From the NCBI GenBank assembly GCA_902789505.1, contig CADAOO010000004.1:4659-68658 (forward strand): 64,000 bases of DNA, given 5' to 3'. This DNA comes from an uncultured Methanobrevibacter sp. GTDB taxonomy: Archaea > Methanobacteriota > Methanobacteria > Methanobacteriales > Methanobacteriaceae. Of this stretch, positions 20,495-36,554 are shown piece by piece; position 1 is the stretch's first letter, and every line of letters starts with the position of its first letter. A model generated the notes under the pieces. That model was given only the letters and a program-made list of their open reading frames with translations. It had not been told where the DNA came from and did no database searches. Made by a program: the position numbers and the translations under genes.

Positions 20495-21490
20495 ATGAAA
20501 ACAAAATTAATTAATTCAATTAAGATAAAAATGAAACCTTTTTTGAATGATAATCAAATTGAAGAACTTAATTTAACTTTAAAAAGCATTTTAAGAGATT
20601 TTGAAGTAATCAAAAAAGATGAAAAATTAACATTTTTAGAATCTAAGGAAAATCAAGAATTAGTAAAAAATTTTCTTTCAGCAAAACAAGTTGAGGGATG
20701 TTCAGATAGAACTATTAGTTATTATAAAACAACAATCATAAGAATGCTGGATTGTGTAAAACTTAAAATTGAATCAATCACTACTGATGATTTAAGAAAA
20801 TATCTTTCAAATTATAAAAATAAAACAAATGCATCAAAAACGACAATAGATAATATTAGGAGAGTTTTATCAAGTTTTTTTAGTTGGCTTGAAGATGAGG
20901 ATTATATTTTGAAAAATCCTGTTAGGAGAATTCATAAAATTAAAACTAAAAAAGTTGTAAAAGAAGTTTTATCGGATGAGAATTTTGAAGTTTTAAGAGA
21001 TAACTGTGATAATATAAGGGATCTTGCTATGATTGAACTTTTAGCATCAACTGGTATACGTGTAGGTGAACTTGTTAATTTAAATATTGATGATGTTTTA
21101 TTTAATGAAAGGGAGTGTGTAGTATTGGGTAAAGGAGATTCGGAACGTATTGTTTACTTTGATGCAAAAACAAAAATTCACTTATTGAAATATTTAGAGT
21201 CTAGAAGAGATTCAAATCCAGCACTTTTTGTATCTTTTAAAAGACCATATAAAAGGTTAGGTATTAATGGTGTGGAACGTAGAATTCGAGAATTGGGTAA
21301 TGAGGCAAATATTAAAAAAGTACATCCACATAAATTCAGAAGAACGATGGCAACTAATGCAATAGATAAAGGAATGCCAATTGAACAAGTTCAGAAATTA
21401 TTAGGGCATGTGCAGATTGATACGACAATGCAATATGCTATGGTAAATCAGAGTAATGTGAAAATTGCTCATAGGAAGTTTATTGGTTAA
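20495..21490 (+). CDS. Tyrosine recombinase (XerC/D-like, hsdS-associated), intact
   Basis: STGIRVGEL, GKG, HPHKFRR, LLGH, TTMQY: full R-K-HxxR-H-Y set. N-terminal SAM-like domain. Confidence 0.93.
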   Translation: MKTKLINSIKIKMKPFLNDNQIEELNLTLKSILRDFEVIKKDEKLTFLESKENQELVKNFLSAKQVEGCSDRTISYYKTTIIRMLDCVKLKIESITTDDLRKYLSNYKNKTNASKTTIDNIRRVLSSFFSWLEDEDYILKNPVRRIHKIKTKKVVKEVLSDENFEVLRDNCDNIRDLAMIELLASTGIRVGELVNLNIDDVLFNERECVVLGKGDSERIVYFDAKTKIHLLKYLESRRDSNPALFVSFKRPYKRLGINGVERRIRELGNEANIKKVHPHKFRRTMATNAIDKGMPIEQVQKLLGHVQIDTTMQYAMVNQSNVKIAHRKFIG

Positions 21491-21544
21491 TTTTTTTAAT
21501 TACTTTTTACATAAATTAATAACAATATTTTATATGGTGAGTTT

Positions 21545-22432
21545 ATGCCAATTCCAAAATTCGATGAATTATTCAATGATGTATTAGAATTCCTTTCAGA
21601 TAAACAAGAATACAAAACTAGATTTGTTAAAGAAGAACTCTCAAAAAAATTAGATTTAACAGATGAAGAACGCCATGAATTACTGCCCTCAGGTTCTGAG
21701 CCAATAATTCAAAACCGTATTGGTTGGTCAATAACTACTCTTAAAAAAGCAGGTTATGTTGAATCTAAAAAGTGGGGTAGTGCGAATATCACTGAAGAGG
21801 GTTTAAAAGCACACGAAAAAAATCCGAATATCACAATTGATGATTTGATGAAAATCCCTAAAGTTTATGCATGGTTTAAAGGAGAATCCACAGAACCTCC
21901 TAAAGGTGAATCAACACCTGAAGAGGAAATTGATGAGGCATATAAAAGGATTAATGATTCGCTTTCAGATCAGATTCTTGAAAACATCTTAAATAAAGAC
22001 CCAATCTTTTTTGAAAGACTTGTGGTTGATTTGCTTTTAAAAATGGGTTACGGAGAATTTAGACCTGAAGCTGGTAAAGCAACTTCACCAACCAATGATG
22101 GTGGAATTGATGGTATAATTAATGAAGACAGATTAGGCCTTAATAAAATAGCTATTCAGGCTAAAAGATTTGATAAGGCAAATAAAATTGGAACACCTCT
22201 ACTTCAAAGTTTTGTCGGTGCATTGATGGGAAAAGGTGTTACAAAAGGAGTTTTCATCACAACTTCATCATTTACCAAAGGAGCTATTGATTATGCTAAA
22301 AATCAGTCTATAATTTTAATCGATGGTGATAAATTAGCTGAGTTAATGATAGAATATAATGTTGGAACTTTTACTAGTCATACTTATGAGATAAAACGTA
22401 TTGATAGTGATTATTTTAATATTGGTGAATAA
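21545..22432 (+). CDS. mrr: Mrr restriction endonuclease
   Basis: Mrr_N (NRIGWSITTLKKAG). FERLVVDLLLKMGYG, DGGIDGII, IQAKR, KGVFITTSSF, LIDGDKL. Confidence 0.93.
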   Translation: MPIPKFDELFNDVLEFLSDKQEYKTRFVKEELSKKLDLTDEERHELLPSGSEPIIQNRIGWSITTLKKAGYVESKKWGSANITEEGLKAHEKNPNITIDDLMKIPKVYAWFKGESTEPPKGESTPEEEIDEAYKRINDSLSDQILENILNKDPIFFERLVVDLLLKMGYGEFRPEAGKATSPTNDGGIDGIINEDRLGLNKIAIQAKRFDKANKIGTPLLQSFVGALMGKGVTKGVFITTSSFTKGAIDYAKNQSIILIDGDKLAELMIEYNVGTFTSHTYEIKRIDSDYFNIGE

Positions 22433-22451
22433 TTTCCGTAGTGGTGATTAG

Positions 22452-23915
22452 ATGATGTGGGATGTTCCAGATTTAAGAAATAATCTTAAAAAATTAGATG
22501 ATAAGCCAGCATATGTTAAATGGTGGGCTAAACGAAAGGAATTTGATTTGTTATTAGATAAATTAGATGTAAATTATGATGATATTAAAGAAGCTTTAGA
22601 TATTAAAGATGATTTGTATTGCATTTTTATTGGTCGTCCAACGAATAGATCAGTTGTTGGGTATTTGAAAATGCAATTCAATGAAAATTCAACTTATAGG
22701 TTGACCATTAGTAGTATTCTTTCATCCAGCCAAAACAATAGGCAAGTAGTTGATGATTTCTTAGATAAATTGAAAATTGAAATTTTTCCAATAGATTTAC
22801 CAGTCAAATCTGAAGAAGCAAAAAAAGAGCTAGGAAATCTTGTCGATAGTTGTCTTGAAAAGAATTTGTATATTTTAAATATTCAGAAGAATTATCATCC
22901 ATTGGCTAAAAATATTAAAAGTAATCTATCAAAAATTAGAAAAGAGGCTGGAAAAAATGATGAAAATAATGAAAGGGGAACTTCACTAAATACAAATATT
23001 GCATCAAATGAAAAACGAAACATAATTTATTTTGGAGCTCCTGGAACAGGTAAATCATACAATTTAAACAAAGATAAAGACAAACTTTTAGAAAACTATG
23101 AAAATAACTATGAAAGAGTCACTTTCCATCCGGATTACTCATATGCTAATTTTGTTGGAACATATAAACCCGTTCCAGAAAATAGTTCAATCACTTACAA
23201 GTATGTTCCAGGCCCCTTCATGACAGTCCTTAAAAAAGCTTTAGAAAATCCAAATGAACCTTATCTTTTAATCATTGAGGAAATCAATCGTGCTAATGTT
23301 GCAGCTGTTTTTGGGGATGTTTTTCAACTTTTAGACAGGGCTGAAAATAACGAATCTGTTTATCCAATAGATGCAACAGAGGATATGAAAGCATACATTA
23401 ATCAAGATAAAATCAAAATCCCACAAAACATGTTTATCTGGGCGACAATGAACTCAGCAGATCAGGGAGTTTTCCCAATGGATACAGCCTTCAAAAGACG
23501 ATGGGACTTTAAATACTTTGGAATCGATGAAGGCGAAGATAATATTAAAAACTCAAGAGTCGTTTTAAATAACAAAGAAATCTACTGGAATGACATAAGA
23601 AAAGAGATTAATGAAGAATTGTTATCTTATAAAATCAATGAAGATAAACTTTTAGGTCCGTTTTTTGTATATAATGAGTATTTAAATCAAGAAATCCCAG
23701 AAGATACATTCAAAGAAATTTTCAAAAATAAGATTATAATGTATCTTTTTGAAGATGCTGCCCGCTCAAAAAGAAATGATTTGTTCCAGGGAGCAAAAGG
23801 AAACAATAAATACGTTACATATTCAGAAATCTGTGAAATGTTTGATGAAAGAGGTTTAGAAATCTTCTGTGACAATATTAAATCAAAATTTATCATAAAT
23901 GATGAGGATAATTAA
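22452..23915 (+). CDS. mcrB: McrB/LlaJI.R1-like AAA+ GTPase, copy 1 (degenerate GIY-YIG-like N-terminus)
   Basis: GAPGTGKS, VTFHPDYSY, IIEEINRAN, MNSADQ (NxxD), AFKRRW. Confidence 0.88.
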   Translation: MMWDVPDLRNNLKKLDDKPAYVKWWAKRKEFDLLLDKLDVNYDDIKEALDIKDDLYCIFIGRPTNRSVVGYLKMQFNENSTYRLTISSILSSSQNNRQVVDDFLDKLKIEIFPIDLPVKSEEAKKELGNLVDSCLEKNLYILNIQKNYHPLAKNIKSNLSKIRKEAGKNDENNERGTSLNTNIASNEKRNIIYFGAPGTGKSYNLNKDKDKLLENYENNYERVTFHPDYSYANFVGTYKPVPENSSITYKYVPGPFMTVLKKALENPNEPYLLIIEEINRANVAAVFGDVFQLLDRAENNESVYPIDATEDMKAYINQDKIKIPQNMFIWATMNSADQGVFPMDTAFKRRWDFKYFGIDEGEDNIKNSRVVLNNKEIYWNDIRKEINEELLSYKINEDKLLGPFFVYNEYLNQEIPEDTFKEIFKNKIIMYLFEDAARSKRNDLFQGAKGNNKYVTYSEICEMFDERGLEIFCDNIKSKFIINDEDN

Positions 23916-23927
23916 GAGGTGTAGATT

Positions 23928-26039
23928 ATGACAAATATGTGGATGGTAAGGGCAGGTCCTGATTCATTTTTAATAGATGAATTTAGAGAAACCAATATGG
24001 TTGCTATCGGTTGGAATGTGGGCAATTTAACTGATAAATCTGATGAAGAAATTGCTGAATTATTAAAAAACAAATATGGACACATCAAGGCACTTAAACA
24101 AGTGCTTCGATTTAAAAATGAAATTAAAGTTGGTGATTATGTACTTTCTTCAAATGGTGAAACTAAAACTTATTTTATAGGTGAGATTACCTCTGATTAC
24201 CATAGATCAGATGTTATTAATGAAATGGATTCATCAGGTGATAATTATTTTGATGTTCGTGAGGTTAAATGGATAGGGGAAGTTTCAAGAGATTTTCTTA
24301 AAAAATCGACTAAAACTGACTTAAATAAGTATGATACGGTTTATATTATTGAAGAAGATGCAAAACAGGATATTTTAAAAGTTTGCAGTGATAATAAAGA
24401 TTCTATTGAAAATTCAGCTAGAATCATCAGAAATTATTTGGATGAAAATAATTTAGGTAATTTTGAAAAAAAGGAACATGAAGAAGCATATATTAAATTT
24501 AGACAGTCATTTTCTCCAGAACAGCTAAAAAATTTATCAGGTGTTGATATTTTAAATTACATGTTTTCACATGATGGTGATAAAAATAATTTATGTTATC
24601 ATTTAGAGTTTGATAAAGATTATAATTTTGCAGGAAGCATTGCTGGAGGATCTGCATATAAATTCGGTTTATTCAAACATTCAAAAACTAATCAATGGAC
24701 TACTGGTTCATCTAGAAAGTCAAGAAATGTTAGTGAGGCTGAAGCAATAGAAATTGGTGAAAAAATAAGAAATGCAATTGTTGAAGGAGCAAACCTAATC
24801 AGAAATTTTGATTCAGATTCAATTAGTGATTATATGAATCTTGAAATAGAATTGGGTAAAATATTTTCTAGTTGCAACACTTCTCATAGAAATCAGTGGA
24901 TTCATAAATATTATGTATTAATATTTCCGGATAAATTTCCAATTGTCCATTGGCAGGATATGAAAAAGGATTTTCTTAAAATATTTAATTTAACTCCATA
25001 TGATTGGTATTATGCTTTAGATGGTCAGTTACAATTGCTGACTAAAAAATCAGGTATTAAAGGTTATTCATTATTTAATAATGAAATTTTAAAGTTATTT
25101 GATGATGGGGTAAAACCTCCAAGACCATTTTTAAGTTCATTAAAAAGGAATATAATTTACTTTGGAGCACCGGGAACAGGAAAATCATATAATCTAAACA
25201 AGGATAAAGATAATCTTTTAGAAAACTATGAAAATAACTATGAAAGAGTAACTTTCCATCCAGATTATTCATATGCAAATTTTGTTGGAACATATAAGCC
25301 TGTTCCGGAAAACGATTCAATCACATACAAATACGTTCCAGGTCCATTCATGAGAGTTTTAAAAAAGGCAATGGAAAATCCAATTGAACCTTATATTCTA
25401 ATCATTGAGGAAATAAACAGAGCAAATGTTGCAGCTGTTTTCGGTGATGTTTTTCAACTTTTAGACAGAGAAAACAATGAATCTCTCTATTCAATCGGCG
25501 CATCGGAGGATATGAAAGCATACATAAATCAGGATAAAATCAAAATCCCTCAAAACATGTTCATATGGGCAACCATGAACTCAGCAGATCAAGGTGTTTT
25601 TCCAATGGACACAGCCTTCAAAAGACGGTGGGACTTCAAATACTTCAGCATCAACAATGATGAAAAATTGATTGAAAATACTAAAACCACTTTAAACAAT
25701 ATGGAAGTCAACTGGAACGACTTAAGAAAAGCAATAAACGATGAATTATTATCATATAAAATCAATGAGGATAAACTTCTTGGACCGTTCTTTGCATTTA
25801 ATGAATTCATGAATCAGGAAATACCAACTGAAACCTTCAAAGATATATTCAAAAATAAAATTATCATGTATTTGTTCGAAGATGCCGCCCGCTCCAAAAG
25901 AAATGATTTGTTCCAGGGAGCAAAAGCCAACAAGAAATATGTCACATATTCACAAATCTGTAAAATGTTTGATGAAAGCGGTTTGGAAATATTCTGTGAC
26001 AATATCAAATCCAGATTTATCAGGGATGAAGAGGAATAG
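23928..26039 (+). CDS. mcrB: McrB/LlaJI.R1-like AAA+ GTPase, copy 2 (MWMVRAG/EVE-PUA-like N-terminus plus middle domain)
   Basis: Same AAA+ motifs, near-identical to copy 1. N-term MWMVRAG...VAIGW...IKVGDYV...REVKW. Middle domain LCYHLEF...GSIAGGSAYKFGLF. Confidence 0.9.
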   Translation: MTNMWMVRAGPDSFLIDEFRETNMVAIGWNVGNLTDKSDEEIAELLKNKYGHIKALKQVLRFKNEIKVGDYVLSSNGETKTYFIGEITSDYHRSDVINEMDSSGDNYFDVREVKWIGEVSRDFLKKSTKTDLNKYDTVYIIEEDAKQDILKVCSDNKDSIENSARIIRNYLDENNLGNFEKKEHEEAYIKFRQSFSPEQLKNLSGVDILNYMFSHDGDKNNLCYHLEFDKDYNFAGSIAGGSAYKFGLFKHSKTNQWTTGSSRKSRNVSEAEAIEIGEKIRNAIVEGANLIRNFDSDSISDYMNLEIELGKIFSSCNTSHRNQWIHKYYVLIFPDKFPIVHWQDMKKDFLKIFNLTPYDWYYALDGQLQLLTKKSGIKGYSLFNNEILKLFDDGVKPPRPFLSSLKRNIIYFGAPGTGKSYNLNKDKDNLLENYENNYERVTFHPDYSYANFVGTYKPVPENDSITYKYVPGPFMRVLKKAMENPIEPYILIIEEINRANVAAVFGDVFQLLDRENNESLYSIGASEDMKAYINQDKIKIPQNMFIWATMNSADQGVFPMDTAFKRRWDFKYFSINNDEKLIENTKTTLNNMEVNWNDLRKAINDELLSYKINEDKLLGPFFAFNEFMNQEIPTETFKDIFKNKIIMYLFEDAARSKRNDLFQGAKANKKYVTYSQICKMFDESGLEIFCDNIKSRFIRDEEE

Positions 26040-26042
26040 ATA

Positions 26043-27359
26043 ATGAAAACAATCTATATTCGGGAATTGAAGTATTATTCTAAATCAGAGATTCTTAAAA
26101 TTCTTGAGGATGATGAAAAATCATTCAATACTCTTATAAAAAATGACATCATCAATAAAGAGGACGACAGCTTCTTATTTAAGTTTGTTGGAGTTATCAT
26201 TATAGACAACATTGTCATTAACTGCTATCCGAAATACATTCCGAATGAAGATAATATTAAAAACGATTTTAAACAGGTTATAAACGTTGTTAAAAAGTAC
26301 AATAATCTGTATGAGGAAGTTGAGTATCAAAATGAAAGTCTGGAAGACATTTCATTTAATCTGCTTTCAATGATGATATTCTTTCTGGAGGATTATTTTG
26401 AACATGGAATTTATAATAACATTCAAAATATCCTGGAAATCAACGGCAATGGAGAAATAGATTGGAATCGAACAATCAATTACACTGATCCAATTATTAA
26501 AGATAATAAACCTTATTATGCTGAATTATATACCAAATATAAAATCGATGATTTATTCGATTACTTCAGACTGCTTCATGAATACATCATCACTGAATGT
26601 TCAAAGCGTTTGGAATGTGCAGATTTGCTGGAACTGTTTGATTTGACTCCGGTTGAATTGTCTGATAAAGAACAAAATGACTTTGGCGAATTGGATGTCA
26701 TTTTAGAAAATCTGGAAAAGGAATTGCATGTTGAGTTCAATTCACACAAACAAAAGCTATTGAAGTCCATGCATGCATTTTTAAAGGAGAAAAATTCATT
26801 TTCAAATGAAAACTACCTGACCGTTTATGGAACAACCACTTATCATGTAATCTGGGAAGATATCTGCAAGAGAGTATTTAGGGATAAACTGGATAAGCCT
26901 CTAAGGGAAATAACTGATTCTAATTCCAACACCAAACTAATCAACATCATTAAAAAGCCTGTTTGGTATTTAAATGAAGGTGAATTTAAGGTTGACACAT
27001 TCAGACCTGATTTGATTACATTCTGGAATGATTACTTTATCATTTTCGATGCCAAATATTATAAACTTAAAATCACTCAAAAGTTAGAAAAGCAGCCTGG
27101 TTTGAGTGATGTTTCAAAACAGTATTTATATCAGTTGGCTTACCGGGATTTCATTGATGAAAATAACTTTAAAGGGGTTAAAAATGCATTTTTGATGCCG
27201 ACATATGATGGTGAAGTAGAAAATAAGGGTTATGTTGAAATTAAAATACTGCATGATTTAGGGCTTGAAAATATTCAGGTTATAATGCTTCCCGCAGGTG
27301 AAATGAACCGGTTATATTTGGAAAATAAGAAAATGAGAATTGAAGATTTAAATCTTTAG
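26043..27359 (+). CDS. LlaJI-family (McrC-like) restriction endonuclease subunit
   Basis: FVGVIII..CYPKY, GEIDWNRTI, WEDIC, RPDLI...IFDAKYY, PGLSDVSKQYLY, NAFLMP. Confidence 0.88.
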   Translation: MKTIYIRELKYYSKSEILKILEDDEKSFNTLIKNDIINKEDDSFLFKFVGVIIIDNIVINCYPKYIPNEDNIKNDFKQVINVVKKYNNLYEEVEYQNESLEDISFNLLSMMIFFLEDYFEHGIYNNIQNILEINGNGEIDWNRTINYTDPIIKDNKPYYAELYTKYKIDDLFDYFRLLHEYIITECSKRLECADLLELFDLTPVELSDKEQNDFGELDVILENLEKELHVEFNSHKQKLLKSMHAFLKEKNSFSNENYLTVYGTTTYHVIWEDICKRVFRDKLDKPLREITDSNSNTKLINIIKKPVWYLNEGEFKVDTFRPDLITFWNDYFIIFDAKYYKLKITQKLEKQPGLSDVSKQYLYQLAYRDFIDENNFKGVKNAFLMPTYDGEVENKGYVEIKILHDLGLENIQVIMLPAGEMNRLYLENKKMRIEDLNL

Positions 27360-27403: not shown

Positions 27404-28657
27404 ATGGTAAATTGTTATAAATGTGGTAAAAATTTAATTAGAAATGCTAAGTTCTGCAGTAATTGTGGTGATGCAATTACCTGGCCTGAAGGTAAAGAAC
27501 AAGTTCCTAATTCTGTTGGTGATTTTCTAAGGGATAAAGGTACTGAAATAATACATGACAATTTACCTGAAGAATATATTGATAAAATTAAAGATAATAT
27601 TCCAAATTATCAAGAAATAAGAAATGAACCTGAAAGTGGGGAAATAGATGAAAATCAACATTTAAGTAATGCTAAAGAAAGTATTATGAATGCATCTGAA
27701 ACTATAAAACAGTCTAGTGATGATTTTATTTCTAGCAATGAATATTTAAATAATGCTAAAAATTCTGTAGTCTATGCTTCTGATGCAGTTAAAAAATCAA
27801 GTTCTACTTTTATTAACAATAATATATCATATGAATCTCAAGATAAAATAAAATCTTGTGCTAATAATTTTTCAAAGTCAACTAAAAACTTCTTGGGTAA
27901 TGCAGGTGAAGTATTTTCAAATATTCAAGCTCATAGAAGTAAAGTTAAACAGCAAAAACGGGAAGAACGTGAAGTTGAAAATGAAATCAAAAAAGTCAAA
28001 ATGGATGAAGATAAAGAGCTACGTGAAAAAGAAAGAGCTGAAAAGGAAAAACAGAATCAAATTTTAAAAGAAGAAACCCATCAAAATAATATAATTAAAA
28101 TAAGAGCCACTAGAACAGTTTCGATTGAAATTCCTTATCATGTGCCCACTGATGATGTTATGCATGGATCAATTAAGGGTGAAATGATGGGAAGTGCTGC
28201 TGGAAGAGCTATGGAAGGATTATTTGGAGATAATAATTCTTTATCAAGTACTGTAAATGCAGGATTAATTCTTGGTGGCGTTGGATCTCTTATAGGAGGT
28301 CTTGCAGCTGCATCGGATGATGGAATTCGTTGGAATACTGCTCAACTTTATATTGCAGATGATGAAATAATAATTTCGGGAAAATATTCACTTTCGTTTG
28401 ACGAAATTAAACTTATATCTGTAGGAAAATATAAATCCAGTGATGTTATTGTATTCACACTTCAAAATCAAGGTCTTGAATTTAAAACAGATGATGCATT
28501 AGCTTTAAAAATAGTTATTGAAGAATATATTCAAAAGTATAACTCAAATAAAAAATCTCCAGGAAATGTTGATGATTTACTGAAATATGGTGAATTATAT
28601 GAAAAGGGTATAATTACAAAAGAAGAACTCGAAATGAAGAAAAAAGAGTTATTATAA
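27404..28657 (+). CDS. Zinc-ribbon / glycine-zipper / SHOCT-domain protein
   Basis: CYKCG...FCSNCG. GLILGGVGSLIGGLAAA. C-term LLKYGELYEKGIITKEELEMKKKELL (SHOCT). Confidence 0.8.
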   Translation: MVNCYKCGKNLIRNAKFCSNCGDAITWPEGKEQVPNSVGDFLRDKGTEIIHDNLPEEYIDKIKDNIPNYQEIRNEPESGEIDENQHLSNAKESIMNASETIKQSSDDFISSNEYLNNAKNSVVYASDAVKKSSSTFINNNISYESQDKIKSCANNFSKSTKNFLGNAGEVFSNIQAHRSKVKQQKREEREVENEIKKVKMDEDKELREKERAEKEKQNQILKEETHQNNIIKIRATRTVSIEIPYHVPTDDVMHGSIKGEMMGSAAGRAMEGLFGDNNSLSSTVNAGLILGGVGSLIGGLAAASDDGIRWNTAQLYIADDEIIISGKYSLSFDEIKLISVGKYKSSDVIVFTLQNQGLEFKTDDALALKIVIEEYIQKYNSNKKSPGNVDDLLKYGELYEKGIITKEELEMKKKELL

Positions 28658-30437: not shown

Positions 30438-30821
30438 ATGATGGGAAAAGAAAAGTGCGAACTGCTCAATGAAATCAGGCAAAATATTGCCGATGCAAAC
30501 GATATTGAATTCACTGTTTATGAATGTACTTTCGAAGGTGAATGTAGTGGAACTTGCCCTAAATGTGAGGCTGAAAGGGAATATTTGGAGCGGGAGCTTG
30601 AAAAAAAGCAGAATGCTGGTGAAAAAATCAATTTAAAAGGTGTTTTTAAATTGAAGCCTGAAGAAAAAATAATTGAGATTCCATATGATGATGTATATCT
30701 AGTCAGAAAACCTTCATCAAGGCCAACTGCTTCTTTGGGCCATCTCTTTGGAAATGGCATGCCGAGAGGTGATCCTGACCATTTTGTTTTAAAAAAGCCA
30801 TTAAATGAGAATAGTGATTAA
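30438..30821 (+). CDS. Cys-rich-leader protein 1 (radical SAM-associated)
   Basis: GKEKCELLNEIRQNIADANDI...ECTFEGECSGTCPKCEAEREYL. Likely ATG 30438 (ORF track 30411). Confidence 0.8.
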   Translation: MMGKEKCELLNEIRQNIADANDIEFTVYECTFEGECSGTCPKCEAEREYLERELEKKQNAGEKINLKGVFKLKPEEKIIEIPYDDVYLVRKPSSRPTASLGHLFGNGMPRGDPDHFVLKKPLNENSD

Positions 30822-30822
30822 A

Positions 30823-31302
30823 ATGAAAGGAAGAGACAAGTGTAATTTGCTTAATGAAATCCGGCATAAGATAGCTGAGGATAACAGCATTGAATTTGAA
30901 ACTGAAGAGTGTACTTTTGAAGGGGACTGTACCGGGACCTGTCCGAAATGTGAATCTGAAAGGGAATATTTGGATTCGGAACTCAAGAAAAAGCAGGATG
31001 CCGGTGAGGAAATAAACATCAGAAATATATTCGCATTAAATGAGGATTCAAAAGATTATAACTATGATCCAATTGGGGTAATTGAGAAATTAGCAGAGGA
31101 TTCCGGCGAAGAAAATGATGCACTTTTGGGAAATCTTATTTTTGAAGAAAGACTGACTGGAGATGTTCCGGCACAAACTGATGATGAAGATGATGAACTT
31201 TTGGGAGATCTTATTTTTGAAGAAAGACTGACTGGAGATGTTCCGGCACAAACTGATGATGAAGATGATGAACTTTTGGGAAAGCTTAGTTTTGAAGAAT
31301 GA
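30823..31302 (+). CDS. Cys-rich-leader protein 2 with acidic Gly-centred 25-aa repeats; probable AGA>TGA nonsense at 31300 (full frame to 31413)
   Basis: GRDKCNLLNEIRHKIAEDNSI...ECTFEGDCTGTCPKCESEREYL, then LLGDLIFEERLTGDVPAQTDDEDDE repeats that continue in frame past the TGA. Confidence 0.8.
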   Translation: MKGRDKCNLLNEIRHKIAEDNSIEFETEECTFEGDCTGTCPKCESEREYLDSELKKKQDAGEEINIRNIFALNEDSKDYNYDPIGVIEKLAEDSGEENDALLGNLIFEERLTGDVPAQTDDEDDELLGDLIFEERLTGDVPAQTDDEDDELLGKLSFEE

Positions 31303-31351
31303 CTGACTGGAGATGTTCCGGCACAAATTGATGATGAAGATGATGCACTTT
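31108..31351 (+). repeat. 75-bp tandem repeat, ~3.2 copies
   Basis: GATG(C/A)ACTTT recurs at 31117, 31192, 31267 and 31342. Confidence 0.95.
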
Positions 31352-31396
31352 CAGAAGAAATTAGTATAACTGGAGCTATTCCTCCTTCTTCATTAA

Positions 31397-32707
31397 ATGA
31401 TAAAAATGATTAGCGTTTCAAAGATTTCACGATTAAGAACCTACAGTGACGGTGACGGGGTTTCAACCTTGATTGGCTGCATGGGATGTCCTTTAAGATG
31501 CGCCTATTGTTTCAATCCTTTCAGTTGGGATGAATCCATCAAACCTAAAAGATACACTGTTGATGAATTATACGATGAGGTTAAAAAGGACAATATCTAC
31601 TTTCTAGCCACAGGAGGAGGATTGGTTTTCGGCGGCGGAGAACCGTTGCTCTACCATGATTTTATTAAGGAATTCATTGAAAAATACAGGCCAACTGGCT
31701 GGAAATTCACGCTTGAAACATCCCTCAGTACAAAACAGGAGTGTCTAAAAGATATAATTCCATATATTGATTATTTCATAGTGGATACAAAGGACATGGA
31801 TAAGAACAGATATGAGTTGTATACTAAAGGCGATTATGATTTGTTTTTGTCAAATTTAAAATATCTGCTTGAAAATGTGGGGGCAGATAAAATCAGAGTT
31901 CGCGTTCCTAAAATTCCCAAATTGAATACATTATATGACGTAAGAGTAAATTCTGAAATCCTTAAAGGCATGGGATTTAGGGAAATTGAAGTCTTTAATT
32001 ATATCGAAGTCGATGAATTTGAAAAGATATCAGAAATTGCCTTAAGGAATAAACAGGAATTTGTTGAGCTGATGACTAATAATTTTATAAAGGATTTTAT
32101 CCTCTCGGAAATAGTTTTAAAAGTTACTCCCTTAATAGATTTTCATATTAAATGCTTTCCGGGATATTTATGGAAAAATACAGAGTTCATATTTGAATTC
32201 GATTCCGTTTATGGGGAGAATCTATATGATTTAAAAGAGGCCATCATTTCCAGATTATGTGAATGTTACGATTATTTGGATTTGGAATACTCGTTTTATG
32301 TAATTTTATATCCCGTCGATTCTCTGGTTCATAAATCCTTTGGAAAAGATGAATGTTTCAGGACTGCTGATGTTTTAGAGGGATTCAATCAAAGAGATAG
32401 GGACGACTATCTGTTGAAGCTATGGGAAAAAGATAAGTGGGGCTATCTTGAATTTAAAAACTTTTGTCGGACCACAAATAAATTGAGTGACTATTTTGAT
32501 AATTACACCTATGAACTTGACCCCAAATACATCCTTTCAAATTCCTATGAAGTTTTCCCGCCAGAATCTGAAATCAGGATATTTCTTAATAAATCAGGCG
32601 AAAAATATAATATTGTGGAATATGGAGATGCAACACATGTTCTGGTTCAAAAATTAGACATTAAAATGGAAGTTATTTCTCAAGAAATTAGTATGTTAAA
32701 CAGATAA
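31397..32707 (+). CDS. Radical SAM protein, PFL-activase (glycyl-radical activating)-like, with ~220-aa C-terminal extension
   Basis: DGDG, GCPLRCAYCFNP (CxxxCxxC), GGGLVFGGGEPLL, LETS, VDTK, RVRVPKIP. Confidence 0.88.
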   Translation: MIKMISVSKISRLRTYSDGDGVSTLIGCMGCPLRCAYCFNPFSWDESIKPKRYTVDELYDEVKKDNIYFLATGGGLVFGGGEPLLYHDFIKEFIEKYRPTGWKFTLETSLSTKQECLKDIIPYIDYFIVDTKDMDKNRYELYTKGDYDLFLSNLKYLLENVGADKIRVRVPKIPKLNTLYDVRVNSEILKGMGFREIEVFNYIEVDEFEKISEIALRNKQEFVELMTNNFIKDFILSEIVLKVTPLIDFHIKCFPGYLWKNTEFIFEFDSVYGENLYDLKEAIISRLCECYDYLDLEYSFYVILYPVDSLVHKSFGKDECFRTADVLEGFNQRDRDDYLLKLWEKDKWGYLEFKNFCRTTNKLSDYFDNYTYELDPKYILSNSYEVFPPESEIRIFLNKSGEKYNIVEYGDATHVLVQKLDIKMEVISQEISMLNR

Positions 32708-32708
32708 T

Positions 32709-33610
32709 GTGATTCAAATGTCAAACTACAGAAACGACCTGCTTGAAGCAAAAAGGCAATATAAGGCTAAAAATTATGCAAAATCCTGTAAAATTTACAC
32801 TAGACTGTATAATGAAATTCCCTTTGACAATTCCGCCAAATATTCCTATGCCTGGGCGGTCTATCAAGCAAAAGTCAGAAATTACGCTTCCGAAAGCCAA
32901 TTATTCGAGGATGTTGATTTAATAACAAATCTCACAAAGCAGAATGATTTAAATCGAACCAAGTTATGCGTCTACACAATGAGCGTTTTTAAGGTTTTTA
33001 AGTTGTTGTATCATAATAACGAGTATGAAAGCCTGCCCTACTGGCTGGATAAAATCAACCCTGATTTTCTTGATGAGGTCAGATTTACAAGAGACGGTGA
33101 AATCTATCCTTCAAACAGGGAAAGCTATTACATCTACTCTTCGGTTACCTATTTTAAACTTATGGAATATGAAAAGTGTATCGCCATATCCGCCAAGGCA
33201 CTGAATTCACTTACCAAGTTCACAGCAGACAACGGAATTTGGTTTGAGTGGAGAACGCCAAATCACTAAGGCAAATCGGAGAGTATACAAAGGCTCTGAA
33301 GTACCTGAACAAAATCAGTTTGGATGAATGGTATGTCTATCATGAGATGGCTGAAAACTATTATTTCCTGCAGTTTGAAGATGACAGCCTGAAGTATGCC
33401 CTGAAAGGTGCGCTTAAGGACGATCCGCAGGATATGAAGTACAATCTTTATTCATTACTGGCTTATTTGTTGCATGTTGATTATCGGGATTATGCAGAAA
33501 AGCATGAAATGTTATGTGAGCTGATTCGGCTTGAAAGTGGTGATGGCAAAAAGGAACTGGAAGATGATTTGGTTGAAATTTGGACTGGACTTGAAGATAA
33601 AGTAATATGA
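32709..33610 (+). pseudogene. TPR protein split by a 1-bp frameshift near 33255
   Basis: ORFs 32709-33269 and 33248-33610 join as WFEWR-x-AKSLRQIGEYTKALKY...WYVYHEMAENY. Confidence 0.75.
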
Positions 33611-33658: not shown

Positions 33659-35578
33659 ATGGGTCTTTTTAGAAAAAATCCTTCTGAGAAAAAACTGAAG
33701 GAATTGACAGGCGGTTTTGTATTAAATAATGAATTCATTAGTCGTTTGAAGGATAACGGCCTGGAGATTCGTGACGGCAGTCTGATTCAAAGCCAGCTTA
33801 AGGATGAAATCAAAGAGGGATTGCCTGCAGATGATGTGGGCATAAGGCTGAATCAGTTAATAGTTGAATATAAAAAGCAAAAGACCGATTCAGTTCTTGA
33901 TAAAACCTGTCCAAGATGCAGCACAAAACAGGAATTTGAAAATACATTCTGCATCAACTGCGGCTATGAGTTTAACCGGACAAAAAACTGTCCAATATGC
34001 GATACATCACAGGAAGATTCCAATATTTTCTGCATCAATTGCGGATACGATTTTGCAAGCAAGAATATCGCAAACACAAAAAAGGAATGTCCAAATTGCC
34101 GCAAGTCCCAATATATCCGGAATAAAACCTGTTCCGATTGCGGTTATGATTTTGAATCTGAAAAATTACCGAACTTGCTTAAAAAATGCCCATCTTGCAA
34201 TCTATTGCAGAAATCAGCCAACATGTTCTGCAGAAACTGCAAGCAGGACCTGCGGGATGTTGACTATGAACCGTGTGAAGAGCTGGTTGAATGCAGTCAT
34301 TGCGGGCGCATGATTCCGGCAAACAAGGATATGTGTCCATTTTGTAAATTTGATTTCAATAAATTTGAACGTGAGAAAATTGAAAAACAGAAAAAAGAAG
34401 AAAAAATCAGATTATTGAATGCTCTTGATACCGAACGTAAGGCCACCTTTCTGGCAAATTACGAATTCAACCTTAAAACCTGTCCTGACTGCAATACTAA
34501 ATTCCTTAAAGCAGACCCGTTCTGCTTCAACTGCGGAGCGAGTGTTCTTACCAAACAGACTGTCAAAAATGATAATCTTGAAGTAAAAGATGGCAAGCTG
34601 GTTGCAAAGGATGAATCAAATCAAAAGGATGAACTGACAGACCTTGAAGCACTATATTCACAGACTGTTCAAAGCAAATACGCCCCGGCATTCAAGGTCG
34701 CTTATGTCCTGTACCTGGAGGAGTTCAGGAAAAATCCCACAAAGAAATTTTCAGACAGGCTTGCAAAACATTACGACACAACTCCTAAAAAGCTCAACAG
34801 GCAGGCTCTTGAAGACGAGTTCATCGAGCCGGCACCACCGTTAAATGTGGCCAAGGATTTTAAGGTGTCCGACTTAAAGGAGATTTTAAAGGAACACAAC
34901 CTTAAGGTTTCAGGCAAAAAGGATGAGCTGATTGAAAGGTTGGGCGAAAACTTGTCCGAAGATGAGCTTAAAAAGTATTTTAAATCAAAAACATATCAGA
35001 TTAGCGATTCTGGACTGGAATTTCTGTCCAAAAACAGTTGCATCCTGTACATCTACAATAGCAAGGACATTTCAAGAGTATTCTATCCGTCTGAAATCGG
35101 AAAGATTTTCGAGGAAAAGCAATACTCTGAAACAGAAATTCAGGATATCATATTGAAATACCTCAAAAGGATATTTGATGAAAAGTTGACACAAGAAAGA
35201 TGGGTTGATTTCAAAATATATGCAAATGCAATCGCCGAAGTCATGGAAGACAAAGGCGAACTTAAGGATGCCCTGAATGTCCGTTTGAAGGTGTTTTTGT
35301 TTGACCTCAACAATTTCTCGATTGTCACCGAAAGGCCGAATCCGAGAAATACAAAACTCAAACAGAAAGACATGTCAAAATTAATGGAACTGATGCATAA
35401 TTTGGCTCTTTCAATCGATGATCTTAAAGAGGAGTTCGGCAGGGCATACAATGAAGTGCTGTTTGAAGTTGAAATCACAAAAGAGGATTCATTAATCTAT
35501 TTGCTTAAAATATTCGGCGGAGAGGATTTGGATAAGATATCCGCGGAAATCAATGAAAGCTATTCTAATCCTCATTGA
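33659..35578 (+). CDS. Multi zinc-ribbon (DZR) + SAP-domain protein
   Basis: Six CxxC-x10-CxxC units. FKVSDLKEILKEHNLKVSGKKDELIERL (SAP). Confidence 0.85.
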   Translation: MGLFRKNPSEKKLKELTGGFVLNNEFISRLKDNGLEIRDGSLIQSQLKDEIKEGLPADDVGIRLNQLIVEYKKQKTDSVLDKTCPRCSTKQEFENTFCINCGYEFNRTKNCPICDTSQEDSNIFCINCGYDFASKNIANTKKECPNCRKSQYIRNKTCSDCGYDFESEKLPNLLKKCPSCNLLQKSANMFCRNCKQDLRDVDYEPCEELVECSHCGRMIPANKDMCPFCKFDFNKFEREKIEKQKKEEKIRLLNALDTERKATFLANYEFNLKTCPDCNTKFLKADPFCFNCGASVLTKQTVKNDNLEVKDGKLVAKDESNQKDELTDLEALYSQTVQSKYAPAFKVAYVLYLEEFRKNPTKKFSDRLAKHYDTTPKKLNRQALEDEFIEPAPPLNVAKDFKVSDLKEILKEHNLKVSGKKDELIERLGENLSEDELKKYFKSKTYQISDSGLEFLSKNSCILYIYNSKDISRVFYPSEIGKIFEEKQYSETEIQDIILKYLKRIFDEKLTQERWVDFKIYANAIAEVMEDKGELKDALNVRLKVFLFDLNNFSIVTERPNPRNTKLKQKDMSKLMELMHNLALSIDDLKEEFGRAYNEVLFEVEITKEDSLIYLLKIFGGEDLDKISAEINESYSNPH

Positions 35579-36554
35579 TTTCAGTGTAATTGTTTTTAAA
35601 GGTATCCAGTATTTCACGCATTTTCTTGTCTTTGGCAGCATCATATCCGCTTTTTAGAATGCTGATGATGGATGCAATCTTGTCTTCGGGACTTAGGATT
35701 GCATTATTTTCAAGCATGATCTGGTCGTATTTCGGAGGATATGTGAAATCCTTTTTGAACTGCTGTTTGATTTCTTCCCTTAAATCATAATCAATGAATT
35801 CCTCTAGAATATGCAGTATGTCATGCGCTATTGTATTTCCCATAACAAGACTGATTGTAATGCTTTTTTGGTCCTTTTCAGGGTCAAATTCCTGTATAAG
35901 AATATTGTTGAATGAACCGTAGTTCTGATAGCCGTGAGGCACGAATCTCCCTTCGCAGGTGTGTGCGCAGTATTCATTTGTAAGCTGTGTCAGCGGGCTT
36001 CCAATCAATGTAAACCATGCAAGGGCTTCAATTGCATCGCTTTTGGATGAACCCCATACATACATCAGTAACTGTTCAAAAATCTCGCTGAACAAATGAT
36101 GTGACAGTTCATGAATCAGTGTGGAAATCTGGCTTGCCTTGTCCAGCCTGTCGTCGACTCTGATGATGTTGAATGAATAGCTTCCAAGCTCTGCGCCGCT
36201 TGACTTGTAGATTATTTTGCTGTAGGCTTCGGCAATGGCTTTTATCTTATCAAGGATGTTCATGTGGCGTTTGTTCACATCTGTGTTTTTATAGTATTCC
36301 TCAAGGTGGTGGTGCCCCATGTTGGCAATGTTTTCAATGACCGTATTGTAGCCCTCAAGGGTTATTTCATCAAGTTTTTTATAGTTTTCTTTTGTGAAAA
36401 TGTCTTCAAAGTTTTCATAGCTTTTAACTTTGAAATGTTCCTTTTTAAAAAGTAGTTCTCCACAGTTTTCACAGTTGTTGTTGTCGTCGCTATTTTCAAA
36501 TCCACATTTAGAACAGAACACCATGCTAATCACATGTAAAGGTATGTTTTTCAT
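35565..36554 (-). CDS. Zinc-ribbon + HExxH (ImmA/IrrE-like) metallopeptidase-domain protein
   Basis: FCSKCG...CENCG. STLIHELSHHL...NEYCAH..EGRF. Paralogue of 62461-63651. Confidence 0.8.
   Translation of the reverse strand: MKNIPLHVISMVFCSKCGFENSDDNNNCENCGELLFKKEHFKVKSYENFEDIFTKENYKKLDEITLEGYNTVIENIANMGHHHLEEYYKNTDVNKRHMNILDKIKAIAEAYSKIIYKSSGAELGSYSFNIIRVDDRLDKASQISTLIHELSHHLFSEIFEQLLMYVWGSSKSDAIEALAWFTLIGSPLTQLTNEYCAHTCEGRFVPHGYQNYGSFNNILIQEFDPEKDQKSITISLVMGNTIAHDILHILEEFIDYDLREEIKQQFKKDFTYPPKYDQIMLENNAILSPEDKIASIISILKSGYDAAKDKKMREILDTFKNNYTEINED

Follow-up and report, generated by a model that had tools for sequence, protein, structure and literature searches.

Within the 64-kb stretch of DNA from an uncultured Methanobrevibacter sp. 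that was analysed here (64,000 nucleotides, hereafter the window), reading of the open reading frames revealed a compact locus in which two small genes are followed by a gene for a PflA-like radical SAM enzyme (rSAM), all of them tightly packed on the (+) strand (Table 1). Gene 2 begins 1 nt past the stop codon of gene 1, and both small genes, which carry a common cysteine-rich N-terminal domain (the head), lie directly upstream of the rSAM gene. An earlier note, made from the sequence alone, had described three tightly coupled genes here, and the reading frames were found accordingly.

Table 1. Features of the locus (positions are those of the window).
Feature	Position	Strand	Description
Gene 1	30438..30821	+	127-aa substrate-like protein; family-consensus start ATG 30438, stop 30819-30821; five-Cys head, residues 1-66 (30438-30635); disordered tail
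Gene 2	30823..31302	+	159-aa substrate-like protein; start ATG 30823; head 30823-31020; acidic tail with repeated LLG(N/D/K)L and LTGDV
Tandem repeat in gene 2	31111..31351	+	75-bp unit, 3.2 copies, 94% matches (Tandem Repeats Finder)
In-frame TGA of gene 2	31300..31302	+	AGA (Arg) at the same position in other repeat units
Gene 2 tail remnant after the TGA	31303..31413	+	In frame; LTGDV and ITGAI; TAG end overlaps the rSAM start
Radical SAM enzyme	31397..32707	+	436 aa; residues 1-205 PflA-like core; ~222-436 extra domain

Each 25-aa unit of the protein 2 repeat encodes two glycine motifs, and every one of the features that had been listed before, namely the 75-bp repeats and glycine pentapeptides of protein 2 as well as SLGHL and PRGDP of protein 1, is present. 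In the closest relatives of protein 1, the tail motifs are conserved as LG[HQN]LF (Gly101, 30738-30740) and xGDP (Gly111, 30768-30770). When gene 2 is read through its TGA, the frame stays open to a TAG at 31411-31413, and in relatives the stop codon of the head gene likewise overlaps the rSAM start. Probably the TGA arose by a recent nonsense mutation, or the repeat was misassembled at this point; a contig with 96% identity (L112) breaks off within the repeat, short of this position. Selenocysteine incorporation or another form of recoding was considered for the TGA and dropped, because the sister repeat units have AGA there.

Proteins 1 and 2 are 51% identical across 106 residues (E 2e-29) and have in common a head of 66 residues with five invariant cysteines, in agreement with the N-terminus of ~70 aa and five conserved Cys that had been noted from the sequence. 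The two proteins score 121 and 113 bits, respectively, against a head HMM, and in a family alignment of 60 sequences C7, C30, C36, C40, C43, G38, T39, P41, E44, and E46 are invariant. Conservation in these proteins is strongest by far in the head, where 15 of the 66 columns are invariant, and the domain family comprises 2,939 clusters at 50% identity. Its position is almost always N-terminal: nearly all of the 150 cluster matches listed begin the domain at their first few residues. Up to seven head-tagged paralogues follow a single rSAM gene, with near-identical heads and divergent tails. Neither the head nor the small proteins correspond to a family in Pfam, NCBIfam, or PADLOC; a Foldseek comparison of the head fold with the PDB gave nothing at E <= 0.001, and a wide VIA-align search returned generic helical hairpins only (Z <= 5.3). 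The AF2 model of protein 1 consists of a helix (residues 3-20), a Cys loop, a second helix (41-59), and a disordered tail. The cysteines form a knuckle pattern, C-x5-C-x3-C-P-K-C, which resembles the cluster-3 region of succinate dehydrogenase Fe-S subunits weakly and not significantly (E 0.3-0.5, E 0.085). The head thus consists of two helices with a Cys knuckle between them, and it probably binds a metal or an Fe-S cluster.

The radical SAM enzyme carries the motifs DGDG, CPLRCAYCFNP (CX3CX2C at 31487-31510), and GGGEP, and the corresponding columns (DGxG, CX3CX2C, GGE) are common to PflA outgroups; the activase-type signatures DGxG, CPLRCxYCxNP, and GGEP had been recognized before, and the best family matches are indeed glycyl-radical activases, with PFL-AE (3C8F, E 5e-13) as the nearest solved structure. 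However, the enzyme scores below the curated cut-offs of TIGR02494 (PFLE_PFLC, 131.4 against 174.35), TIGR02493 (PflA, 92.8 against 231.75), and TIGR02495 (NrdG2, 56.8 against 131.15), and its bacterial orthologues likewise fall under the activase cut-offs. It has no Pfam or NCBIfam family of its own, as its Pfam matches are Radical_SAM and Fer4_12 only. Against an HMM of its clade, the window enzyme scores 371 bits, and in the tree it lies inside this clade, which stands apart from PflA and NrdG at 99/99 support and is marked by the clade-specific residues R12, R14, D65, Y68, W102, Y139, and Y142. The bacterial orthologues are 202-213 aa long and 40-47% identical to the archaeal enzyme, and the C-terminal domain of ~210 aa is confined to some Methanobrevibacter loci; this domain has no Pfam or atlas match (the atlas feature score of 0.80 carries no information) and an AF2 pLDDT of 49. 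No SPASM/twitch region, RRE, or auxiliary cluster was detected in the enzyme, and the clade has no invariant Cys outside CX3CX2C. Two stretches of the enzyme align with TIGR02494; in the better one, residues 48-202 correspond to model positions 99-254, an alignment that reads as passing over the Cys-rich insert of that family.

As the earlier note had observed, no glycyl-radical enzyme is encoded in the 64-kb window. The whole genome (84% complete) gave no Gly_radical or PFL-like match, and the sole glycyl-radical enzyme found in it is NrdD, on a different contig. The note had also considered that the enzyme might serve a PFL or NrdD encoded elsewhere; the genome carries a separate, bona fide NrdG2 (170 bits against a cut-off of 131), hence the enzyme is not needed for NrdD. 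Four bacterial host genomes were checked for PflA, and three keep a separate one.

An orthologous rSAM gene adjoins a head gene on the same strand at 77 of 86 loci from archaea, Firmicutes, and Bacteroidota, so that the leader HMM co-occurs with the rSAM clade, a check that had been proposed at the outset. The remaining loci are mostly contig-end cases, and two real exceptions have the rSAM gene elsewhere in the genome; a further candidate exception, L011, was rejected, with no head ORF by the head HMM and no rSAM in the genome at E <= 1e-30. When the neighbours of 65 loci were clustered, no other family was found to be common across phyla and only the rSAM and head proteins recurred; in none of the phyla is the pair accompanied by a conserved gene for a protease, an exporter, or immunity. 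Among bacteria, head proteins occur in Bacteroides xylanisolvens, B. faecis, and B. nordii as well as in the families Muribaculaceae, Lachnospiraceae, and Oscillospiraceae; the archaeal carriers are Methanobrevibacter from the rumen and gut. The archaeal clade is nested within Firmicutes in the tree, and the cassette probably entered Methanobrevibacter from Clostridia-like bacteria. The presence of similar leaders in Bacteroidota and a transfer among gut microbes had been suspected from the start; such leaders do occur there and the tree supports transfer, but the nearest bacterial relatives are Firmicutes. Within the genus, the cassette is present in 16 of 103 species; here it sits in an integrase and restriction island, mobile and patchily distributed. 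Defence genes and a TPR gene lie near the locus in the window, but the defence genes read as island context rather than as part of the cassette. A role in a defence system was considered and rejected, as the enzyme matches pVip weakly and generically only (E 8.5e-08, PADLOC) and the TPR gene is not conserved in other loci.

In bacteria the head-tagged proteins are exported, measure 100-500 aa, and in many cases include a folded TonB_C or SusC-like domain; a Sec or lipoprotein signal peptide directly follows their head. In contrast, no lipobox or hydrophobic segment follows the head in the 13 archaeal proteins: the maximum 15-aa hydropathy after the head is at most 0.71 in 13/13 archaeal and at least 1.47 in 120/120 bacterial proteins.

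The tails diverge, yet a glycine motif recurs in them. The pattern [LIVMF].G[DE][LIVMAP] was seen 440 times in family tails versus 58 +/- 8 in shuffles, and L.GD (L-x-G-D/E-V/I) is the top unbiased gapped triplet (145 observed versus 11 expected). Of the non-redundant tails, 185/249 (74%) exceed the 95% shuffle cut and 26% have no significant motif, hence the question of a conserved glycine motif in homologue tails, posed in the earlier note, is answered in the affirmative; the logo is anchored on the G and fits an attacked glycine and a turn-former alike. The motif is kept across three phyla, including the archaeal proteins without an export signal. In protein 2, the family PWM gives 16.3 at the ERLTGDVPAQT sites (Gly codons 31159-61 and 31234-36) and 9.9 at 31204-06, with three sites over the 99% shuffle cut within the ORF and one further after the TGA. 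In protein 1, the glycine sites SLGHL and PRGDP are variants only, and neither of them scores on this PWM.

Co-folding of protein 1 with the enzyme, which had likewise been suggested, docked the head on the enzyme and brought the SLGHL glycine motif to the active-site region. The ipSAE values were 0.75, 0.75, and 0.76 in three runs versus 0.01 for the best of three controls, where the mark applied is reached by 58/80 solved complexes and 2/110 mismatched pairs, and where the use of custom alignments with ligands along places the runs outside this calibration. The runs have at least 77% of contacts in common, with a partner pLDDT of at least 64. On the side of protein 1, the predicted interface comprises both head helices, residues 66-74, and residues 97-104 (TASLGHLF), and head residues 37-39 touch the enzyme; on the enzyme side it includes residues 39-40, 79-80, 107, 128, 169, and 203, and the clade-specific invariant residues R12, R14, D65, Y68, and G79 lie inside it. 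The docking of the glycine peptide in these models may in part be a reflection of the solved PFL-AE-peptide complex 3CB8.

The locus is rather likely to be the archaeal copy of a widespread, unannotated cassette, in which a minimal PflA-like rSAM is paired with dedicated, head-tagged protein substrates. The interpretation in the earlier note is supported, as none of its refuting conditions that are open to computation spoke against it. This suggests an undescribed protein-modification system, for which we infer a chemistry at glycine. The head would act as a structured leader that docks on a clade-specific enzyme surface (residues 8-22 and 64-73), and docking would bring the hydrophobic-x-Gly-(Asp/Glu)-hydrophobic...Pro motif, which lies in the acidic, disordered tail, to the SAM/[4Fe-4S] site. 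There the 5'-deoxyadenosyl radical may abstract the C-alpha hydrogen of the tail glycine, in analogy to PFL-AE, which acts on the glycine of the RVSGYAV loop with its hydrophobic flanks. A radical on an exposed glycine would have no obvious productive fate, because the enzyme has no auxiliary cluster or invariant extra Cys; a cross-link, oxidation, or cleavage are candidate outcomes. In bacteria the modification would have to precede export, because the head stands before the signal peptide and the motif beyond it, while the export signal itself is no part of the enzyme-substrate logic, since the Methanobrevibacter copies have no signal peptide. A more far-reaching proposal, which we regard as doubtful, is that an Fe-S-bearing head is a substrate-borne auxiliary module and together with the minimal activase uses glycyl-radical chemistry at the Gly C-alpha to cross-link or oxidize proteins other than glycyl-radical enzymes or to cut their backbone, which would make it a new modification class. 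If true, such a module would serve exported envelope proteins of gut Bacteroides and Clostridia, with a cytoplasmic form in Methanobrevibacter.

It is conceivable, albeit fairly unlikely, that the enzyme acts on, or together with, the five-Cys head rather than the tail glycine. The head would then be either an Fe-S module in trans, replacing the ferredoxin-like insert absent from the minimal activase, or itself the site of modification (at G38 or a Cys), and in both cases the tail motif would serve the function of the mature protein. The conservation of the head, the contact of its residues 37-39 with the enzyme in the co-fold, and the TIGR02494 alignment that reads as skipping a Cys-rich insert are in line with this, as is the resemblance of the knuckle to SdhB, although those matches are not significant. 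However, the co-fold sets the tail motif, and not the knuckle, against residues lining the active site, and the motif is kept in three phyla and in signal-less archaeal proteins, with the rSAM as the only other common component; moreover, a pure redox partner need not be fused to up to seven exported proteins per locus.

That the cassette is a true RiPP pathway, in which the tails, and especially the 25-aa repeat units, are cut into small modified signal or antimicrobial peptides, appears quite improbable. The earlier note had proposed RiPP-like precursors that are modified by the rSAM, and the constant leader and the glycine cores on which this rested have held up; hypervariable or repeated cores, the multi-core tandem repeat, several precursor-like genes per enzyme, and a mobile, patchy island would also suit it. 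However, leader-tagged protein substrates fit better than RiPP peptides, because the bacterial partners are exported proteins, often with folded domains; as many bacterial members end in folded TonB_C or SusC-N-like domains, the products there are proteins. The absence of a conserved adjacent protease, exporter, or immunity gene in any phylum, and an enzyme without SPASM/twitch and without a detected RRE, also speak against peptide products. The reading as an ordinary activase for NrdD or for an unassembled PFL-type enzyme, with the small genes as unrelated neighbours, has the motifs, best family matches, nearest structure, and incomplete genome on its side, but is nearly refuted by the scores under every curated cut-off, the proper NrdG2 and lack of a PFL-like or Gly_radical match in the genome, the head-gene linkage across phyla, and the separate PflA of most bacterial hosts checked.

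Among known systems, PflA/PFL-AE (3C8F, 3CB8), TIGR02493, TIGR02494, and NrdG are like the enzyme in the partial-barrel core, DGxG, CX3CX2C-x-N, GGE, D-x-K, and R169, and the putative target is, as for PFL-AE, a glycine with hydrophobic flanks. Apart from its scores and separate clade, the enzyme differs from the activases in its partner, which is no glycyl-radical enzyme but a five-Cys-head protein, small or exported, with a disordered tail instead of the buried glycine loop of a large enzyme, and the glycine of the tails is followed by Asp or Glu and not by an aromatic residue. Leader-dependent rSAM RiPP maturases (the SPASM/twitch enzymes AlbA, CteB, and PapB, and three-residue-cyclophane systems with repeated short motifs) are alike in combining a constant leader with a variable or repeated core, in having several precursor-like genes per enzyme, and in the translational coupling of the genes. 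In contrast to these, the cassette has an enzyme without SPASM/twitch or detected RRE and a locus without protease or exporter, and its 66-residue leader is itself a folded domain, rich in Cys; in bacteria a signal peptide and, in many cases, a further folded domain come after this leader. The cassettes of gut Clostridia and Bacteroidales have the same five-Cys head, an orthologous PflA-like rSAM, and the same tail glycine motifs as the archaeal copy, whereas the latter has no signal peptide or lipobox, an enzyme with an extra C-terminal domain, and one substrate with several motifs in a tandem repeat, whose gene carries a nonsense codon.

The cassette is common, yet no curated family and no paper on this pairing of head and rSAM was found; a RiPP-mining paper on Bacteroidales (PMC10352776) contains neither "TonB" nor "glycyl", and "activase" occurs in its reference list only. 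If the enzyme abstracts hydrogen from the glycine of dedicated substrates, glycyl-radical chemistry would reach beyond the activation of glycyl-radical enzymes, and TonB-like and SusC-like envelope proteins of dominant gut bacteria would be subject to a new modification. The archaeal copy amounts to a natural experiment, in which head, glycine motif, and enzyme were kept while the signal peptide was lost, so that the enzyme-substrate logic is separated from export. Its two substrates are small and soluble (127 and 159 aa) and should express easily for biochemistry.

The cassette comprises two small genes and the gene for a PflA-like radical SAM protein (rSAM), tightly packed on the plus strand as the earlier note had described, with one base between the stop of gene 1 and the ATG of gene 2 and a Shine-Dalgarno-like element, AGTGA(G/T), six bases upstream of the ATG of both small genes. 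Proteins 1 and 2 share 51% identity (E 2e-29) across the first 106 residues, which include a five-Cys N-terminal head of 66 residues, and diverge beyond. In protein 2, each 25-residue unit of the tandem repeat pairs an LLG(N/D/K)L with an LTGDV, and the repeat continues past the TGA of the gene, as had also been noticed on first reading: the TGA stands in place of the AGA of sister units, and the frame runs on to a TAG (31411-31413) overlapping the start of the rSAM gene, encoding LTGDV and ITGAI on the way. The small gene's stop likewise overlaps the rSAM start in relatives. The TGA probably arose either as a recent nonsense mutation or through misassembly of the repeat; protein 2 keeps its head and two strong motif sites despite it.

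Features of the cassette (window positions)
Feature	Position	Strand	Size or detail
Gene 1	ATG 30438 to stop 30819-30821	+	127 aa
Gene 2	ATG 30823 to TGA 31300-31302	+	159 aa
75-bp tandem repeat in gene 2	31111-31351	+	3.2 copies, 94% matches
Radical SAM gene	31397-32707	+	436 aa

A search with protein 1 returned 59 relatives, and a profile of its first 66 residues matched 2,939 clusters at 50% identity (2,572 at E <= 1e-10). Of the 150 clusters listed, nearly all have the head beginning no more than a few residues from the N-terminus. C7, C30, C36, C40 and C43 are invariant across the family, together with the string G-T-C-P-x-C-E, yet neither Pfam nor NCBIfam holds a model of the head, and no curated family or paper on the head/rSAM system was found in database and literature searches. 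The AF2 model of protein 1 consists of a helix (3-20), a Cys-bearing loop, a second helix (41-59) and a disordered tail, and structure searches with the head returned generic helical hairpins only. The head knuckle, C-x5-C-x3-C-P-K-C, shows a weak resemblance, below significance (E 0.3-0.5; E 0.085), to the cluster-3 region of succinate dehydrogenase Fe-S subunits. This may serve as a lead towards Fe-S binding, not as evidence for it.

The co-occurrence of leader and enzyme that the earlier note had proposed as a check was found in most loci. A scan of one genome per species gave 469 head-encoding stretches, the best 79 of which lie in archaea (Methanobrevibacter), Clostridia (Lachnospiraceae, Oscillospiraceae and others) and Bacteroidales (Bacteroides, Muribaculaceae and others). 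As counted with HMMs built for this analysis, an orthologous rSAM adjoins the head gene on the same strand in 77 of 86 head-holding loci. In seven of the nine rSAM-less loci the head gene lies at or near a contig end, and for the two true exceptions the rSAM was found elsewhere in the same genome. In archaea and Firmicutes the head gene(s) precede the rSAM, and in Bacteroidales the rSAM comes first, with one to seven head genes after it; clustering the neighbours of 65 loci revealed no third gene family common to several phyla. A dedicated enzyme-substrate pairing of rSAM and head proteins is close to certain.

Residues 1-205 of the enzyme carry the activase-type motifs recognized on first reading (DGDG, CPLRCAYCFNP and GGGEP), and among solved structures PFL-AE (3C8F/3CB8; E 5e-13) comes closest. 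The best family matches of the enzyme are glycyl-radical activases, each under its curated cut-off (TIGR02494, 131 vs 174; PflA, 93 vs 232; NrdG2, 57 vs 131). Many TIGR02494 members contain a Cys-rich ferredoxin-like insert, and the match to this family is split in two stretches, the better one aligning rSAM residues 48-202 with model positions 99-254, which suggests that the rSAM skips the insert. An extra domain, from residue ~222 to 436, is confined to some Methanobrevibacter copies (loci L009, L010, L014 and the degraded L019); it had no match in Pfam and no informative match in an atlas search, and its AF2 model is unusable (pLDDT 49).

An enzyme of this type might simply activate a PFL or NrdD encoded elsewhere, as the family matches would allow. 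The host genome (1.89 Mb, 84% complete) encodes a single NrdD, on a different contig from the cassette, and has its own bona fide NrdG2 on contig 18 (170 bits vs a cut-off of 131); no Gly_radical or PFL-like protein was matched in this 84%-complete genome. A separate PflA is likewise present in three of four bacterial host genomes checked (296-327 bits), and maximum-likelihood phylogeny sets the head-linked rSAMs apart, as a single clade, from PflA, GRE-AE and NrdG2 outgroups (99/99 support). The ordinary activase reading is rejected on the host NrdG2, the absence of a PFL-like match in the 84%-complete genome and the separate clade.

The reading preferred here, that the rSAM acts on glycines of the head proteins, is further supported by the tails. 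The motif [LIVMF].G[DE][LIVMAP] occurs 440 times in 316 distinct tails (226 proteins carry it), against 58 +/- 8 in composition-preserving shuffles. In a scan of all gapped triplets in which glycine was not assumed, L.GD ranks first (145 seen vs 11 expected), with L.G.V, GDV, EL.G and L.GE also near the top; other high-ranking triplets derive from C-terminal TonB-type domains. The resulting position weight matrix is E-L-x-G-(D/E)-(V/I/P)-x-x-P, and 185 of 249 non-redundant tails exceed the 95% shuffle cut (158 the 99% cut), the first site lying at least 22 residues past the head (median 38.5). In protein 2, two sites score 16.3 and a third 9.9, and a further site past the TGA scores 12.1; the variant sites of protein 1, LG(H/Q/N)LF and xGDP, have no score on the family matrix and are kept in close relatives. 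Among archaeal copies the motif type seems, anecdotally, to track enzyme subtype, as long enzymes pair with LGxLF and GDP motifs, 238-aa enzymes with F-x-x-F-G and a 225-aa enzyme with L-M-G-D-I.

Co-folding of the full enzyme with protein 1, SAM and the [4Fe-4S] cluster gave ipSAE values of 0.75, 0.75 and 0.76 in three runs (best of three controls, 0.01). Among solved complexes 58 of 80 attain the mark of the three runs, and among mismatched pairs 2 of 110; the use of own alignments and ligands places the prediction outside the calibration of the tool. The runs have at least 77% of contacts in common and a partner pLDDT of at least 64. In the model, enzyme residues 8-22 and 64-73 form the surface on which the two head helices and residues 66-74 pack, with further contacts to the enzyme from head residues 37-39. 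The clade-specific invariant residues R12, R14, D65, Y68 and G79 of the enzyme lie within the interface. The head likely docks on the enzyme. The interface includes tail residues 97-104 (TASLGHLF, with Gly101), which by elimination would lie against the barrel-lining residues 39-40, 79-80, 107, 128, 169 and 203, a placement that may be carried over from the solved structure of PFL-AE with its peptide. The model speaks for binding of protein 1 by the rSAM, short of showing it. The interpretation of the earlier note, that in a RiPP-like system the rSAM may modify Gly residues of precursor-like proteins with a conserved leader, survives every computable test, and hydrogen abstraction at the motif glycine is the most likely first step, held with moderate confidence.

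In each of the 120 bacterial head proteins the head is directly followed by a hydrophobic segment (maximal 15-residue hydropathy at least 1.47), with a lipobox-like end in 36 of 37 Firmicutes and 29 of 83 Bacteroidota proteins and Ala-x-Ala-type ends on several other Bacteroidales segments; many Bacteroidales proteins also carry TonB_C or SusC-N-like C-terminal domains. The bacterial head is an extension ahead of a signal peptide, and any tail modification must precede export. The 13 archaeal head proteins have neither the segment (maximum <= 0.71) nor a lipobox, and the persistence of head, Gly motif and enzyme where there is no export argues that these three are the functional core. In 11 Bacteroides loci (L029, L036, L040, L056, L057, L063, L066, L077, L078, L082 and L087), the rSAM and head-TonB_C pair lies on the same strand between genes for an AddA-like helicase-nuclease (~1060-1080 aa, 11 loci) and an AddB-like PD-(D/E)XK protein (~960 aa, 10 loci).

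In the tree the archaeal rSAMs are monophyletic (100/100), with a long stem, and fall within a Firmicutes-plus-Archaea group (94/87). Within the genus 16 of 103 species have the head, and within the phylum 24 of 329 genomes, all in one family (4 of 30 genera); some copies contain stop codons. A single transfer from Clostridia-like gut bacteria, with patchy retention afterwards, would account for this, the exact donor being uncertain because the archaeal branch is long. Similar leaders do occur in Bacteroidota, as the earlier note had suggested, and its proposed transfer among gut microbes fits, but the sister of the archaeal clade is a Lachnospiraceae sequence (96/84) and the Bacteroidota lineages branch below it. 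Head-domain matches with in-frame stop codons in three genomes of the same family (G007, G002 and G121) indicate ongoing loss of the cassette from some Methanobrevibacter lineages. A decaying Methanobrevibacter-type cassette, with a 79-aa tailless head protein and an rSAM in three fragments, was also seen at L019, on a contig labelled as a Bacilli bacterium MAG that may be mis-binned.

The cassette in the window adjoins an integrase, an Mrr nuclease and a McrB/LlaJI-type restriction operon: positions 20495-27359 encode a tyrosine integrase, then an Mrr-type nuclease, two AAA_5 (McrB-like) proteins, the first with a GIY-YIG-like N-terminus, and a LlaJI-type nuclease, which places the cassette in a mobile defence island. 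Downstream, at 32709-33610, two overlapping ORFs in different frames (186 and 120 aa) match consecutive positions, 3-174 and 175-264 of 368, of PADLOC PDLC01170 ('TPR repeats containing protein fused to cold shock-like domain'). The two ORFs appear to derive from a single defence-associated TPR gene that has a frameshift near 33248-33269 and whose C-terminal part is missing, a gene not kept beside the cassette in other loci. Three zinc-ribbon genes also flank the cassette (27404-28657, 33659-35578 and 35565-36554 (-)), the flanking proteins being of 417 aa (Zn-ribbon plus SHOCT), 639 aa (at least four double zinc ribbons and a SAP domain) and 329 aa (Zn-ribbon). In a Methanobrevibacter-type metagenome contig (L002:56-8942), the cassette follows an SMC/LmuB-like gene and a gene for a 1134-aa GajB-like UvrD helicase-nuclease and has the gene of a TPR protein and a split Hsp70-like gene after it, a neighbourhood that is variable and of defence type.
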